Under the pieces are notes generated by a model. It saw only the letters and a list, made by a program, of their open reading frames with translations. It was not told the DNA's origin and did not search any database. From sequence record PQ642267: 64,000 nucleotides of DNA; one strand, written 5' to 3'. Both the position numbers and the translations under genes were made by a program. Shown in pieces: positions 2,902-29,661 of the stretch. Each line of letters begins with the position of its first letter. Position 1 is the first letter of the stretch. Source of the stretch: Shigella phage SH-2.

Positions 2902-3903
2902 TTACTTAATTAGCTGTAAAGCTTGTTCAAGACGATCCAGACGATTAACAGATTCTTCCCAAATCCTTTTAGCCTTCTCATATTCTTTCTGCGCTTTATT
3001 AGAAATTTCTAGAACTTCTTTATAAGCTTTTTCTAGTGCAATAACTTCTGGACGAATTTCTATCGGTTCAGGCGAATCGTCAAGACATTCCATTAGTTCT
3101 TCAAGGGTAGTTTCTTCTTTAGGAGTATTCACAATTTCATCACATTTTTGTTGGTAAATTTCTTTATCAGTCGGTGAATAAGCGCATTTCACTTCACGAA
3201 GGCTAATTATAATTTTATATCCTTCCCACCCACACATATTTTTGAAAGGATATGTATGAATACTTTTTACAGTTTCCATACAGCCCAAAACCGCCTCTAA
3301 TTGATAAGTTATAGTGCTAGCAATTGAGAAAAATTTATTAATATTCTTTTGGTTAGCGTTTGGTGTAAAAAATCCATAATTCACAAAAATAGCTACTTTA
3401 TTTTTATCAAGCTCATATTCTTTTACGATAATCATATCAGAAGCCAAAGGATGAATTTGACGATAATCGCCATAACATAATTTAGAAGCTGATTTTAGAA
3501 TTTGTCCTTTGAAAAGTCTGAAATTACTAATCCAACGACGAGTAAAAATATTCTCAGGGTCTTCTTTATTATTAAGATGATAAGAATTAACATCACCGAA
3601 CCAATTATATCCTACTACATCTTTAGTTCGTTTAATTTCTTTCCCAAATTTACCAAGAATATCTCTGTTGACTAAGTATGAAAGAAGACGAGACCCTTTA
3701 AAGGTTTTCTTAATGTCATCTTTATCTGTACGACTAGAAATTTCACGAACTTCGTGAATAAATCTGCTGGAAGAAACAATGCTTACATCAATATTATTGA
3801 GCCATTGATTGATAATAGAAAGAACACTATTCTGACTAGACATAGGTTTAACTTTATCATCAATAACACTGTTGAATGATTTGATATATTCGTTACGAGT
3901 CAT
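2902..3903 (-). CDS. paralog-family protein 2 (~333 aa, C-terminal coiled coil)
   Basis: Track start 3954 is upstream of the promoter; ATG at 3901-3903 has GAGGAG SD; begins MTRNEYIKSF. Confidence 0.55.
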   Translation of the reverse strand: MTRNEYIKSFNSVIDDKVKPMSSQNSVLSIINQWLNNIDVSIVSSSRFIHEVREISSRTDKDDIKKTFKGSRLLSYLVNRDILGKFGKEIKRTKDVVGYNWFGDVNSYHLNNKEDPENIFTRRWISNFRLFKGQILKSASKLCYGDYRQIHPLASDMIIVKEYELDKNKVAIFVNYGFFTPNANQKNINKFFSIASTITYQLEAVLGCMETVKSIHTYPFKNMCGWEGYKIIISLREVKCAYSPTDKEIYQQKCDEIVNTPKEETTLEELMECLDDSPEPIEIRPEVIALEKAYKEVLEISNKAQKEYEKAKRIWEESVNRLDRLEQALQLIK

Positions 3904-17628: not shown

Positions 17629-17958
17629 TCAATTAGAAAATAAATTTATCCAAGATTGCTCTTTAATTAAAAATGGCTCAGAATCATATGCCATTAAACT
17701 TTGGGTGATTAGTCCTTTAAAAGGTCCATCAATAAATTCCATGGTAAAATATGGAATTTTATTCATTAATCTTGCATTAGGAGCAGTACACAAAACTCTG
17801 CATCCTTTGAATACGCCTTTTTGTAATTTGTATTGCTTAGGATAAAATTCGCTCAAGACGTTGTTATTTGCCAAAATTTCAAAATGATTCACCAATTTAT
17901 TTTTAATAGTTTTTGGCGAAAAATAAAGATATTCGAAAAGTTGCGTGTCTGTCATCAT
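17629..17958 (-). CDS. hypothetical protein (~109 aa)
   Basis: ATG at 17956-17958 overlaps upstream stop (ATGA); track start 18009 also ATG. Confidence 0.4.
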
Positions 17959-18497
17959 TGCATTCCGATTATGAAAAACTGTGGACGAGTAATACCACCA
18001 ATGCAGCATTTACTACTGCAACAGTGGTGCACAGTTTCAATATGAATATCGTAAATTTTATCCATATCAGGAGATTTAACAGGCTCATCGATTATATACA
18101 AAATCCGCGAAAGCGATAAACCTCTGAACTTGCTTCCTTTATTACCGATAAAACTACGGACAGAATCGGTAAATAAGCGGAATCGAATATCATCGCCAGA
18201 ATAACGAGAAAATTCTTTTTTAATGTGGCCCGCAGAAATTTTAGCGTAAGCTGAAGTATTAGAAAGAACAATAACTGTTCCACCATCATACAGCCAATTA
18301 GCGGCAAAATTAGTTACTGCAGTTGATTTACCGGATTGTCTGCCACCATCTAAACGAAGTGTACAATATTCTTTAAATAAATGCGACGAATCAGGTACAT
18401 AAAATCCACTATTACAGATTTCTTCTACTCTAGCATCAGAATGGTGTGTAAAAGCATTCATCAGGGATAGATAAGGACCAGTTAAAAATGTTCTCAT
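17955..18497 (-). CDS. small P-loop NTPase (Walker A GGRQSGKST, Walker B-like IIDEP)
   Basis: ATG at 18495-18497 with AGAGAGAA SD (track start 18545). Confidence 0.45.
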   Translation of the reverse strand: MRTFLTGPYLSLMNAFTHHSDARVEEICNSGFYVPDSSHLFKEYCTLRLDGGRQSGKSTAVTNFAANWLYDGGTVIVLSNTSAYAKISAGHIKKEFSRYSGDDIRFRLFTDSVRSFIGNKGSKFRGLSLSRILYIIDEPVKSPDMDKIYDIHIETVHHCCSSKCCIGGITRPQFFIIGMQ

Positions 18498-18645
18498 TTT
18501 ATTCTCTCTAAATTTGGGCCATTCCATGGCGCATGAATTGTCCATTTCTGTATTTACCCATTACCGCACTTGGGCTCGACCTTATTACAGGTTGGCGGGA
18601 ATCCCTCACAGAATCATGAGGTCCAGCTTGTTCCCATGTTATTTG

Positions 18646-18712
18646 AATGTAAATATTTTTGCCGTAATACTTGTACCAGTGTGGCTTTATTAAAATTTTT
18701 TCATCGAGTCAT
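18646..18712 (-). pseudogene. denV remnant: start codon fused to 3' terminal ~65 bp of denV (reads ATG ACT CGA TGA)
   Basis: 18646-18710 identical to 19421-19485 (denV 3' end); preceded by a copy of the denV promoter/RBS; junction at shared ACTCG. Confidence 0.6.
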
Positions 18713-18721
18713 TTTACCTCT

Positions 18722-18767
18722 CCAAGTAATTATGAATATACTATCACAATTTTAGGAGAAAGTAAAC
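18722..18767 (-). promoter_or_regulatory. early promoter/RBS repeat, copy 2 (46 bp, 3 mismatches vs 19844-19889)
   Basis: Minus strand GTTTAC...TAGTATATT then GGAGAGG SD; duplicate of denV upstream region. Confidence 0.55.
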
Positions 18768-18769
18768 TG

Positions 18770-19072
18770 TTATTTACCTTTAATTACTTTAGCTGCTTCG
18801 ATAGCCGCTTGCTGAAGGTCATCCATAGACATACCGAATTTAGAAGCAAAGTTATCAATTTTCTTTTCGACAGCATTCAAAGGCTTGGCCTGTTTACCTT
18901 CATTAGCACCAGGAAGAGCGAGAATACGCTCTTTGTCAATATAAAGGCTTACAAGTTTCTTACGGTCTTTATCGGACAAATCATGAAATGAATGGGCCTT
19001 TTTATTTATAGCGGCTTCTAATTTACCTGCACTCACTCGCGCTTCAGTAATAAATTCTTGATATGTTTTCAT
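18770..19072 (-). CDS. internal head protein, IPII-like (100 aa, capsid-targeting leader MKTYQEFITE)
   Basis: N-terminal leader with predicted gp21 cleavage site after ITE; 100 aa as T4 IPII. Confidence 0.65.
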   Translation of the reverse strand: MKTYQEFITEARVSAGKLEAAINKKAHSFHDLSDKDRKKLVSLYIDKERILALPGANEGKQAKPLNAVEKKIDNFASKFGMSMDDLQQAAIEAAKVIKGK

Positions 19073-19090
19073 GTGTGTATCCTTTAATTT

Positions 19091-19408
19091 TTATTCTTTA
19101 GGGAAGTTTTTAGAATATGCATCATAAAGCTTATTTCCAATACGGCGGAAAACTCTAGCCGCAAAACGATTTTCTGGGTTTTTAATCATGATTTGCATCA
19201 TATAAGTACCCGCGTCAGAAAGAGCTTCTTCATAGTACCCATTAATTTCTTTAAGAGTCCTACGTTTACCACCAGGACCATCAACAGTAATTTTCCATTT
19301 ACCTGTAGAAGTGCGGCTCGGTGGCTCAACTTGTTCAATCCAAATATAACCTCCTTCTACACGTTGTCCTTGGGCAGATTCTGCAATAAATTCTTTATAC
19401 GTTTTCAT
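19091..19408 (-). CDS. internal head protein candidate (105 aa, leader MKTYKEFIAE)
   Basis: Same leader class; body not recognised as T4 IPIII (194 aa in T4). Confidence 0.6.
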   Translation of the reverse strand: MKTYKEFIAESAQGQRVEGGYIWIEQVEPPSRTSTGKWKITVDGPGGKRRTLKEINGYYEEALSDAGTYMMQIMIKNPENRFAARVFRRIGNKLYDAYSKNFPKE

Positions 19409-19417
19409 ATGTTTCCT

Positions 19418-19834
19418 TTAAATGTAAATATTTTTGCCGTAATACTTGTACCAGTGTGGCTTTATTAAAATTTTTTCATCGAGTCGTTGTTGACTCAATT
19501 TAATAGCTGATTTGCATGGGTTATAATCATTTTTCCATTCTACTGGAATATCGCTGATGTCAGGAACTTCAGTGTCTTTTATACTGAACCCGCGTTTTAA
19601 GCATTCCATTATAATGTCTGATTGACGCTTTCGCAAAAATTCTAACTTGTCGTAAAAGAACGTAACATGACCAGAACCTAAAATAAACTCGGAAGATATT
19701 TTAAAATCTTTAACCCGCTTACCATTTGCCACGTGTTTACGAACTATACCAAAAACGCGTGGCAATTCACGGTATTCTGCGATTAAATGTTGATCAGCAA
19801 GTTCAGATACTAAAGTCAAATTAATACGAGTCAT
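19418..19834 (-). CDS. denV: endonuclease V (pyrimidine-dimer DNA glycosylase)
   Basis: 138 aa starting [17 protein letters not shown]...[10 protein letters not shown], recognised as T4 endonuclease V. Confidence 0.85.
19421..19485 (-). repeat. 65-bp direct repeat, copy 1 (denV 3' end); copy 2 at 18646-18710
   Basis: Exact 65-nt match read from the sequence. Confidence 0.8.
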
Positions 19835-19843
19835 TTTATCCCT

Positions 19844-19889
19844 CCAAGTAACTGTGAATATACTATCACAATTCTAGGAGAAAGTAAAC
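19844..19889 (-). promoter_or_regulatory. early promoter/RBS of denV (repeat copy 1)
   Basis: Minus strand GTTTAC...TAGTATATT...GGAGGGATAAAATG. Confidence 0.55.
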
Positions 19890-19893
19890 CACT

Positions 19894-20424
<531 letters not shown>

Positions 20425-20880
20425 TTAAAAGAGGCTGTTCATTATTCGGTAAAGTGAAGGACCCATCACATATTGCCACTGAGTACGAGGAATAAGGGCA
20501 AAAGCATCCATCTCTGGAATCATAACACCATCTTTATTTTCAAAATAAGACTCGCAATGGCAATTTCTAAACATCTCATGCTCTACTGGAATCGTATAAT
20601 AAAATAACTGTAAGTCTTTATTACTAGAATATTTAAATACACCTAGGTCTTCTAGAAGGTCTGGACTATAATTGCTAAAACCGGTCTCTTCTAAACATTC
20701 TCTTCGTGCTGCATCTAGTGCGCTTAAATCAGAATTTTCTACGCGGCCCTTTGGAATATCCCAGCGATGTGCCATCATTCCAGGCTTACGAGAACCAGTA
20801 ACCCGTCCCATGAATAAATCTTTATCTTCGGTCATAAAGATAATACCAGCTGATAGTGTTTTCATTTTAATTTCCTGCAT
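20425..20880 (-). CDS. nudE: Nudix hydrolase
   Basis: 151 aa; Nudix box G...RECLEETGF; position next to e as in T4 (e.1). Confidence 0.7.
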   Translation of the reverse strand: MQEIKMKTLSAGIIFMTEDKDLFMGRVTGSRKPGMMAHRWDIPKGRVENSDLSALDAARRECLEETGFSNYSPDLLEDLGVFKYSSNKDLQLFYYTIPVEHEMFRNCHCESYFENKDGVMIPEMDAFALIPRTQWQYVMGPSLYRIMNSLF

Positions 20881-24837: not shown

Positions 24838-25401
24838 TTATTTATCTAGTTTAGTTATTATAGCTTCTGCGGCAGCTTTTAGCTTAGATGCGGTGTTAAT
24901 ACGATTTTTAATTTCAGTATACGCATCGCCAAGAACGTCAAGGCTATCAGAATAAACACTTACACTATTGCGTTCGCTATTTGAAATAGAACCTTTAGTT
25001 TTACGATCAAAATCGGTGTACACGTCTTGAAGATCACGGGCTGCCTTCTTTGCATCATCCAATGCATCAAGAGCTTTATTCAAAGCATTAACGTATTTTT
25101 TAGTGTCGAACATATTCTTAGAAATTTTAACAGGTGCGCGTTCAGGAGTAGCTAATGCAGATTTAGGAACCTGAGCGCCAGATGCCAATTTCTTAGAAAT
25201 TTTGAAAAACGCTTTATTGAATTTATTTTCTTGACTCATCGTAAAAGAACTATTATCGATGTTGTACATTTCAATAGCTTTAGCTTTCCACTTAAGAAAA
25301 TCGCCTCGGTCTTTTGGGTCCAAGTGGAAGAATACTTTAGTAAGATCTGCTTCAGATGGTAATTTTGCTGCTTCGGTTAAAAATTCGGCATAGGTTTTCA
25401 T
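24838..25401 (-). CDS. candidate capsid-targeted internal protein (187 aa, leader MKTYAEFLTE)
   Basis: N-terminus matches the leader of IPI/IPII (MK[TS]Y.[EQ]F...E); predicted gp21 site L-T-E/A. Confidence 0.55.
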   Translation of the reverse strand: MKTYAEFLTEAAKLPSEADLTKVFFHLDPKDRGDFLKWKAKAIEMYNIDNSSFTMSQENKFNKAFFKISKKLASGAQVPKSALATPERAPVKISKNMFDTKKYVNALNKALDALDDAKKAARDLQDVYTDFDRKTKGSISNSERNSVSVYSDSLDVLGDAYTEIKNRINTASKLKAAAEAIITKLDK

Positions 25402-25525: not shown

Positions 25526-25999
25526 TTATTTGATTTGTTTAGCAGACCAAATGCGGTCTTTGATGATTTTTTGGATGTCTTCAACATACTCTAGGTCATG
25601 AGCATGTGGGTTATCTTTGAAACTATAAGCACGAGCTAGTTTTTGGCCTTCAGTTTTGATTACTAAAAGCTCTTTAAGGATAGCTTCATATTTAGCGATA
25701 ATTCCTTTAACAATATTTTTTTCTTGTGCAGCTTTAGGATCTGCTTTAGGAGCAGGTTTACCCGAAGCCTTTGCAAAAGCAGCACCAGTAGCAACTAAAC
25801 TTTTCCAGGCCATACTAACCGCATTTCCTGTAAATCCTTCTGCTTTCATGTCGCGAGCAAACTGGAATCGTGATTCGTCAGAAGCATCTTTATAGGAATA
25901 TTTACCCGCTGCAATGGCTGCTTTTGCGACAGCTTGAATTTCGGTGCTAGATGCTTCATTTAACACCGCTTCATTTAAAAATTGAGCATATGATTTCAT
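25526..25999 (-). CDS. candidate capsid-targeted internal protein (157 aa, leader MKSYAQFLNE)
   Basis: Same leader class with L-N-E/A site; flanked by terminators; late promoter upstream. Confidence 0.55.
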   Translation of the reverse strand: MKSYAQFLNEAVLNEASSTEIQAVAKAAIAAGKYSYKDASDESRFQFARDMKAEGFTGNAVSMAWKSLVATGAAFAKASGKPAPKADPKAAQEKNIVKGIIAKYEAILKELLVIKTEGQKLARAYSFKDNPHAHDLEYVEDIQKIIKDRIWSAKQIK

Positions 26000-26754: not shown

Positions 26755-26830
26755 TGGTCGAGGCAGTAGGGATCGAACCTACGACCTAGGACTTAGAAGG
26801 TCCTTGCTCTTCCTTCTGAGCTATGCCCCG
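26755..26830 (-). tRNA. tRNA-Arg (anticodon TCT), CCA encoded
   Basis: Manual fold: acceptor CGGGGCA/TGCCTCG, D-arm GCTC/GAGC, anticodon loop CTTCTAA, T-arm GTAGG-TTCGATC-CCTAC, 76 nt. Confidence 0.8.
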
Positions 26831-26833
26831 TAA

Positions 26834-27499
26834 TTAAAATTTCATTTTTCGACCTTTAAACCATCCTTCTGGAATTGGGTCAGTTTTCTTAATACGTTTA
26901 GAAACTTTTTCATCTAATGAATGAATCCACATCATACCAAATTGGGAATTCTTTTCTCCTTTCTGATGATTATTTTTAGCGTGAATTTCTTTCATTTTAT
27001 TAATAGTTTCAGGAGTATGATGCTTATTTAAAAATCTGCTATTATTTAAAAATTTTTCCTTGTATTCAGGAGTTGACCACAAACGTTTAAATACATTTGA
27101 ACCAATTTTACGATATTTTTCTTGAAGTAAAATATCATTTTCAAAACGTGATTTAAACGATTTAGCTCCTTTTAAACTAGCATCTTTCTTCTGGTTTAGC
27201 ATCCCAGGAATATTTATATGGTCCCATCCACCTTCACCACCAAGTTTTAAATTATACACATCTGGTCTATTTAAAAACTCTTCTGTGACAATATTTTTCT
27301 CAGCTTCAAGCATAGATTCTTTATCATCAAAATACTCTAATATTTCTTTAGAAAAATTTTCTATACCATACTTGTCTTGGGCTCTTTTTAATAATTTACC
27401 AGAACCCATATATCCATCATCTAAATTTTCGGTAGAATGCACACCAATATAAATTTTATTATTAATTTTATTTGTTATTTTATAAAGATAAAAATGCAT
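26834..27499 (-). CDS. segB: GIY-YIG homing endonuclease (SegB-like)
   Basis: YLYKI...IYIGVHST...YMGSG motif; ATG at 27497-27499 gives 221 aa; alternative ATG at 27541. Confidence 0.7.
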   Translation of the reverse strand: MHFYLYKITNKINNKIYIGVHSTENLDDGYMGSGKLLKRAQDKYGIENFSKEILEYFDDKESMLEAEKNIVTEEFLNRPDVYNLKLGGEGGWDHINIPGMLNQKKDASLKGAKSFKSRFENDILLQEKYRKIGSNVFKRLWSTPEYKEKFLNNSRFLNKHHTPETINKMKEIHAKNNHQKGEKNSQFGMMWIHSLDEKVSKRIKKTDPIPEGWFKGRKMKF

Positions 27500-27545
27500 A
27501 TCAGTCCCTAATAAAGAACTGAGCGTCTCACGACGAGTCATAAAT

Positions 27546-27624: not shown

Positions 27625-27711
27625 TGGTGCGAGAAGTGGGACTCGAACCCACAAGGAAATCATTCCGCAGCATTTTAAGTGCTGTGCCTTTACCAATTTG
27701 ACCATTCTCGC
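27625..27711 (-). tRNA. tRNA-Leu (anticodon TAA), class II long variable arm, CCA encoded
   Basis: Acceptor GCGAGAA/TTCTCGC, anticodon loop CTTAAAA, T-arm GTGGG-TTCGAGT-CCCAC, 87 nt. Confidence 0.8.
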
Positions 27712-29373: not shown

Positions 29374-29661
29374 TTACAAAAGATTTTTAGCAATAATCTT
29401 GAGATGTGCCACAGAAATGTGTTTAGCTTTAAACAACGCAGTTTCTTCAGCAGGAGAGATAATGATTGTAGCACCATCCTTTTTAGCAGACCACCCATCA
29501 CCTAGGTAAACAGTACCTTTGATTTCTTCGCCATCAACCAAACTAATCATTGGTTTACCTTCTCGTCCTTTATTTGCTTTAATAACTTCAGAAGTAAGAG
29601 TAGCTTCAGTAATAGTAGAAACCGGGGTAGTTTTTGTAGTAAACTCTTTGAAAGTTTTCAT
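29374..29661 (-). CDS. ipI: internal head protein I (IPI-like; leader MKTFKEF...ITE/A)
   Basis: 95 aa with capsid-targeting leader, located before 57B as in T4. Confidence 0.7.
   Translation of the reverse strand: MKTFKEFTTKTTPVSTITEATLTSEVIKANKGREGKPMISLVDGEEIKGTVYLGDGWSAKKDGATIIISPAEETALFKAKHISVAHLKIIAKNLL

Follow-up and report, generated by a model that had tools for sequence, protein, structure and literature searches.

Are the two small adjacent genes between the lysozyme gene e and vs.8 of this Shigella phage a new variant of the T4 internal-protein locus, and what would their products do in the host? An earlier sequence-only reading had proposed an IPII-like gene next to a 105-aa leader-bearing protein 'in place of IPIII', and had implied that the latter was novel. 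The window, i.e. the whole stretch of 64 kb analysed here, belongs to a Tequatrovirus. The region shares 97.4% identity with Escherichia phage BYEP01 and has matches in 858 phage records, mainly from phages of Escherichia and related enterobacteria. In the ORF list of the window the two genes are adjacent minus-strand ORFs of 100 aa and 105 aa, located in the following setting:

20425-20880, minus strand: nudE
19894-20388, minus strand: e, lysozyme
19835-19889, minus strand: early-promoter cassette copy A, upstream of intact denV; its repeat unit (direct repeat D2) spans 19827-19889
19418-19834, minus strand: denV, intact, endonuclease V of 138 aa, between e and ip10 (Pfam Pyr_excise, E 4.8e-13; phrog_1183, E 1.7e-61)
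19091-19408, minus strand: ip10, precursor of a 105-aa internal protein (phrog_3966, E 3.9e-34)
19379-19408, minus strand: ip10 leader, codons 1-10, MKTYKEFIAE, ending I-A-E, predicted gp21 cut after Glu10
19041-19087, with its partner at 19379-19423, minus strand: leader and RBS repeat (direct repeat D3, 34-45 nt, 85-87% identity), putative crossover zone
18770-19072, minus strand: ipII, precursor of the 100-aa internal protein II (93-94% identity to T4 IPII; phrog_7857, E 4.5e-55)
19043-19072, minus strand: ipII leader, codons 1-10, MKTYQEFITE, ending I-T-E
18705-18767, minus strand: promoter cassette copy B (direct repeat D2), just downstream of ipII
18642-18767, minus strand: promoter cassette copy B together with a denV remnant, 126 bp (repeats and blastn map)
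17955-18545, minus strand: vs.8

Both ip10 and ipII sit between e/denV and vs.8, like ipII and ipIII in T4, and thus occupy the known variable internal-protein locus of T-even genomes, as the sequence-only reading had recognised. This locus between e and vs.8 is known to be polymorphic, and both alleles found here, IPII and Ip10, are already catalogued. The arrangement is nevertheless not that of T4: along the minus strand the window has e > denV > ip10 > ipII > denV remnant > vs.8, whereas T4 and VIPECOOM01 have e > ipIII > ipII > denV > vs.8. The 105-aa gene is thus no mere substitute for ipIII, and the wording 'in place of IPIII' does not fit an order in which denV lies between e and ip10. 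The window lacks IPIII altogether, T4 IPIII having no match by tblastn anywhere in the 64 kb.

Both ORFs can be regarded as genuine genes. The 100-aa ORF opens with MKTYQEFITE/ARV and the 105-aa ORF with MKTYKEFIAE/SAQ, both close to the T4 capsid-targeting consensus MKTYQEFIAE. Each of these leaders ends in the motif of the gp21 protease, (L/I)-x-E, which in the translations reads I-A-E10/S in Ip10 and I-T-E10/A in IPII, with cleavage predicted after the glutamate; the earlier description of two capsid-targeting leaders ending in a predicted gp21 site is thereby confirmed to the exact coordinate. A Shine-Dalgarno sequence (AAAGGA..ATG) precedes each ORF, and a six-frame scan of the 64 kb encountered the leader pattern at only three sites, all of them the beginnings of minus-strand ORFs of at least 100 aa. 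Together with the ORF coordinates and the direct repeat of leader and RBS, these observations indicate that the two leader ORFs are real and not a product of chance.

The identity of the 100-aa protein, earlier called IPII-like, is clear: it is IPII, aligning to T4 IPII (NP_049734.1) at the above identity over all 100 residues in tblastn and pairwise comparison, with the same length and the same leader. Its predicted mature form has 90 aa and a pI of 9.66. The difference to T4 lies in the surroundings: ipII of the window is found downstream of ip10 and not of ipIII, and the denV that comes next is a remnant where T4 has an intact gene. T4 IPII inhibits GmrSD/BrxU, a fused type IV restriction enzyme of E. 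coli ECOR21 (PMC12373910), and the IPII of the window would block a fused enzyme of the GmrSD/BrxU type in the same manner.

To judge from its homologues, the 105-aa protein represents Ip10, an allele already described, and not a new protein. The family phrog_3966 matches it across residues 1-105, and tblastn recovers it in 189 phage records, 131 of which show at least 95% identity. The best match with a name, at 98%, is the 'Ip10 internal head protein' of PP01 (BBC14463.1), followed by RB69ORF124c (96%), by VR7 (YP_004063809.1; 72%), where the annotation 'putative internal head protein Ip10' likens it to RB69 ORF124c and to Ip10 of bacteriophage Pol, and by Shigella phage SP18 (71%), in which it is likewise annotated as Ip10. 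A note in the JS09 record describes Ip10 as similar to emb CAA84455.1, Ip10 of Enterobacteria phage Pol; in JS09 ipII and then a denV fragment follow ip10, the same neighbours as in the window and apparently also as in Pol. The likeness to the Ip10 of other T-even phages comprises homology over the full length, the same leader and the same locus between e and vs.8, and only a few substitutions set the window apart from the main cluster (e.g. K5 and Q13 instead of Q5 and A13). The locus consequently adds no new biology, since gene, name, leader and neighbours were already present in the databases, apparently since the 1994 entry of phage Pol. The implied novelty of the protein does not survive these matches; the sequence-only reading had itself named a described internal-protein allele as the outcome that would overturn it, and such an allele is what the JS09 note and the Pol entry provide.

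That the protein is unlike T4 IPIII was correctly seen before. The two have in common the leader (9 of the 12 N-terminal residues) and the general locus, but Ip10 has 105 aa as opposed to the 193 aa of IPIII, and the BLASTP alignment is confined to residues 1-12 and includes nothing past the leader.

When 5.8 billion proteins were searched by word index and by profile, Ip10 fell into 11 clusters, all from T4-like phages or from assemblies containing them; these protein searches found no Ip10 relatives outside Tevenvirinae. Identities fall into tiers: about 98% in Tequatrovirus and Mosigvirus, about 71% in the group of VR7 and SP18, and 51-57% in phages that infect Enterobacter, Kosakonia, Cronobacter or Klebsiella; of these, two records were examined, Q7622 and Kosakonia phage 305, and both belong to Kanagawavirus. 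The most distant relative is a protein of 149 aa from phage EcS1 (33%). An exhaustive HMMER search of 1.84 billion representatives returned only two real Ip10 relatives (P0004, P0011) and added nothing to the family. Three giant matches of the same search (P0012-P0014, with 9-24 matched stretches each) were rejected after reading the sequences, as their scores were summed over coiled-coil repeats and the motif GTWTVRVDNPDG.

Two database entries of the family deserve mention. RB69ORF124c is a CDS of 90 aa (2501-2773 of the RB69 stretch compared), but tblastn aligns the full 105-aa Ip10 there in two pieces, which suggests that the RB69 reference record either contains a frameshift or has a wrongly called end. 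The main Ip10 cluster (P0001) has among its members a 'hypothetical protein [Escherichia coli]' from a 489-kb contig, and it carries the UniRef name 'IpII internal head protein'; the former is probably phage DNA in a bacterial assembly and the latter probably a mislabel.

How did ip10 come to lie next to ipII? Read from its repeats, the locus is a recombinational mosaic assembled by means of three kinds of short repeat: the leader/RBS segment, the early-promoter cassette and the 3' end of denV. In the blastn map, homology to the PP01-type locus (ip10 > ipIV), whose gene order is also that of Bas41, extends from window position 19423 down to 19041, and homology to the T4-type locus (ipII > denV > vs.8), represented by VIPECOOM01, from 19087 down to 18705. 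The two overlap by 47 nt, which places the crossover within this overlap, i.e. in the leader/RBS repeat. Phage N2 corresponds to the window minus exactly one repeat unit and hence is devoid of ip10, and its segments overlap in the repeat.

The early-promoter cassette is a direct repeat of 63 nt comprising GTTTAC-N17-TAGTAT, the Shine-Dalgarno sequence GGAGGG and ATGACTCG; T4 has cassettes of the same type before ipIII, ipII and denV. The last 72 nt of denV recur at 18642-18713 (direct repeat D1), where they abut the second promoter copy, D1 and D2 overlapping at 18705-18713. As a result, the stretch 18642-18767 contains ATGACTCG fused to about the last 64 nt of denV and reads M-T-R-stop. By its two ends this stretch is a dead second denV with a 347-bp internal deletion between GACTCG microhomologies, and such a microhomology deletion would have removed most of the redundant second copy after the mosaic had been assembled. 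The denV-remnant junction is found in about 17 other phage records, among them JS09, in which a 45-aa 'endonuclease V' fragment is annotated at this place, and about 13 records are collinear with the window across the ip10-ipII junction. Because both junctions recur, the mosaic is not unique to the window.

A third homology concerns the end of the intact denV, which in the window encodes KNIYI before the stop codon and whose last 18 nt, AAAAATATTTACATTTAA, run into the RBS of ip10. AAAAATATTTACATTTAA is identical to a conserved element upstream of T4 ipII, AAAAATATTTACATTTAAAGGAAACATATG (3220-3250 of the T4 stretch compared; 19418-19440 of the window), whereas the denV of T4 itself has a different sequence and ends in KAIYA. 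The denV end AAAAATATTTACATTTAA may accordingly represent a further short homology used in cassette shuffling, able to place denV directly before an ip gene.

This architecture recalls the promoter-early stem-loop (PeSL) elements, through which modules are proposed to be shuffled in T4-type phages (Arbiol 2010, PMC2839356; Comeau 2014, PMC4122927): a duplicated early-promoter cassette flanks the rearranged block, and genes come and go at short conserved regulatory repeats. It differs in that the window adds the leader/RBS of ip genes and the denV 3' end as types of repeat. The locus is a clear illustration of the shuffling of anti-defence cassettes by short repeats of leader and promoter.

The regulatory signals are otherwise few. 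Scans of the locus for sigma-70 promoters and terminators performed no better than on shuffled sequence. An exact copy of the T4 late-promoter consensus, TATAAATA, occurs inside the ipII coding sequence (19003-18996, minus strand), the only other copies near the locus being those upstream of e, at 20402 and 20415. Directly upstream of ip10 or ipII the late-promoter consensus is absent, as it is in T4.

The predicted mature Ip10 (residues 11-105) has 95 aa, 10.9 kDa and 16 K+R, and its pI of 9.6 is very similar to that of mature IPII. AlphaFold2, supplied with an alignment of 11 sequences, models Ip10 as a compact basic alpha/beta protein (pLDDT 84.2, pTM 0.74), in which a leader helix is followed by a three-stranded meander (residues 21-28, 37-43 and 49-56), a long helix (59-76) and a beta-hairpin (85-96). 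The motifs GGYxWIE, TVDGPGGKR and NPxNxxAAxxFRxxGNKLxD are conserved in the family. Searches of Pfam, NCBIfam and PDB sequences with Ip10 yielded sub-threshold noise only (CsgH, Rbx_binding, colicin S4), and the single structure match in BFVD is the Cronobacter-phage member of the family itself, so that no known fold relative emerged; neither in sequence nor in structure did we see similarity to the IPI* fold (PF11634). There is no sign of an enzyme in Ip10. A second L-x-E occurs at L52-K-E54, within a predicted beta-strand. It is a caveat for the processing model, as a gp21 cut at this place would wreck the modelled fold, but the strand probably shields it from the protease.

The explanation we prefer for the locus as a whole, and consider fairly probable, is that the known pair IPII and Ip10 lies in a mosaic built by repeats, that both proteins are leader-targeted and injected, and that Ip10 acts as an inhibitor of a type IV nuclease. 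By analogy to T4 IPI, IPII and IPIII, the leader would steer both precursors into the scaffolding core of the prohead, the gp21 prohead protease would clip it after Glu10, and the basic mature proteins of about 10-11 kDa would be packaged alongside the DNA and injected together with it. For Ip10 we infer packaging, cleavage and injection from this T4 paradigm; the literature, T4-like virion proteomes included, yielded no functional data, virion proteomics or N-terminal sequencing for members of Ip10, ORF124c or phrog_3966. In the cell, Ip10 would be a stoichiometric inhibitor, binding and blocking a modification-dependent nuclease that attacks modified T-even DNA and is different from the target of IPII. 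The model is T4 IPI* (PDB structure cited in PMC3012670), likewise a small, compact protein that is leader-targeted, processed and injected, and that inhibits the GmrS/GmrD type IV nuclease by binding to it.

Most likely, on our analysis, Ip10 has an anti-restriction role. Injected internal proteins help to set the host range of T-even phages, and, since 2022-2025, all those characterised have been recognised as specific inhibitors of type IV restriction enzymes. The earlier view of internal proteins as injected anti-defence effectors is well backed by these studies: T4 Ip1, Ip2 and Ip3 each inhibit one GmrSD variant without cross-protection (PMC12373910), and the leader-bearing Bas37_0260, encoded at the ipI locus, inhibits McrBC (10.1101/2025.11.20.689424). 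IPIII supplied in the host works without its leader (PMC9391042). The authors of PMC12373910 suggest that every protein encoded at the two Ip loci is directed at a variant of the GmrSD family. In their Supplementary Fig. 9, 'ip4-10' gave no reproducible inhibition of further active GmrSD variants, a result that speaks against GmrSD as the target, with 'ip10' matched to phrog_3966 by name only: the numbering of 'ip4-10' follows Repoila 1994 (reference 27 of that paper), and its supplements contain no sequences or accessions of the 'ip4-10' constructs.

Our ranking for the target of Ip10 places a type IV nuclease outside those tested so far first and a defence other than type IV as the main alternative. 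It is conceivable, though rather unlikely, that Ip10 is an injected inhibitor of a non-GmrSD defence, either a modification-dependent nuclease of another class or a first-response system that is not a nuclease and is conserved across Enterobacteriaceae; if true, this would account for the negative GmrSD panel as well as for the spread of the family across phages of Escherichia, Enterobacter, Kosakonia, Cronobacter and Klebsiella. We see about as small a chance that the injected protein is directed at something besides a type IV enzyme altogether, be it another first-response defence or a housekeeping function of the host. All four characterised T-even leader proteins (Ip1, Ip2, Ip3 and Bas37_0260) inhibit type IV enzymes, and GmrSD diversity has been sampled only in small part, with few other type IV families tested.

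Lower in the ranking, and unlikely, are explanations that assign Ip10 no specific target or no place in the virion. As a basic filler, Ip10 could neutralise DNA charge in the head and thereby aid packaging or ejection, as its pI and its lysine and arginine content would allow and as the contacts of T4 internal-protein lysines with DNA phosphates (PMC3012670) might suggest. We nevertheless find this very improbable: the well-defined modelled fold and the strongly conserved motifs go beyond what charge would require, the gene is present or absent among close relatives like an accessory host-range gene, and other basic internal proteins turned out to be specific inhibitors. Still harder to accept is that Ip10 is an ordinary early cytoplasmic product, never packaged, whose leader-coding sequence persists merely as a linker for recombination. 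The leader/RBS repeat is indeed a demonstrable crossover site for the gain and loss of cassettes, and the operon has an early-type promoter upstream, but the amino acids of the leader, including the Glu10 needed for cleavage, are kept in homologues that share only 26-55% identity with the Ip10 of the window in the body. Seven of the ten leader positions (M1, K2, T3, Y4, E6, F7 and E10) are invariant across family members of 33-98% identity; mean pairwise identity in the family is 0.81 for the leader versus 0.62 for the body, and for the relative in phage EcS1 the values are 0.90 versus 0.26. A leader more conserved than the body argues that it is retained for the function of the protein and not just as a recombination site. 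The wide distribution of Ip10 (189 phage records, several genera) makes it a reasonable candidate for a targeted screen.

Further genes of the window bear on its equipment with internal proteins:

29377-29661, minus strand: IPI gene (Pfam IPI_T4, E 1.1e-52 over residues 20-95, which correspond to mature IPI*; 96% to Bas41_0266)
25526-25999, minus strand: ORF of 157 aa with the leader MKSYAQFLNE/A (strong match to phrog_2280, 'unknown function')
24838-25401, minus strand: ORF of 187 aa with the leader MKTYAEFLTE/A (strong match to phrog_2280, 'unknown function')

The absence of IPIII would leave the phage without an IPIII-type inhibitor of GmrSD-ECOR17. Going by PMC12373910, it should resist GmrSD of the CT596 and ECOR21 types, but not of the ECOR17 type.

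The ORFs of 187 and 157 aa lie in tandem near tRNA genes, and BLAST between the two aligns the leaders only. Among the matches listed for the 187-aa ORF (40 of 164 phage records), the sole annotation is 'hypothetical protein'. Both may be internal proteins overlooked by annotation, at a third locus. In PP01 and Bas41 an 'ipIV' cassette comes after ip10; the 157-aa ORF was considered as its counterpart, but the two show no similarity and the idea was rejected. In the same part of the window, an ORF of 235 aa (26834-27541, minus strand) is situated between tRNA-Arg (26755-26830) and tRNA-Leu (27625-27711); it carries a GIY-YIG domain (Pfam GIY-YIG, E 7.5e-6; SegE_GIY-YIG, E 1.8e-5) and probably encodes a homing endonuclease of the seg type.
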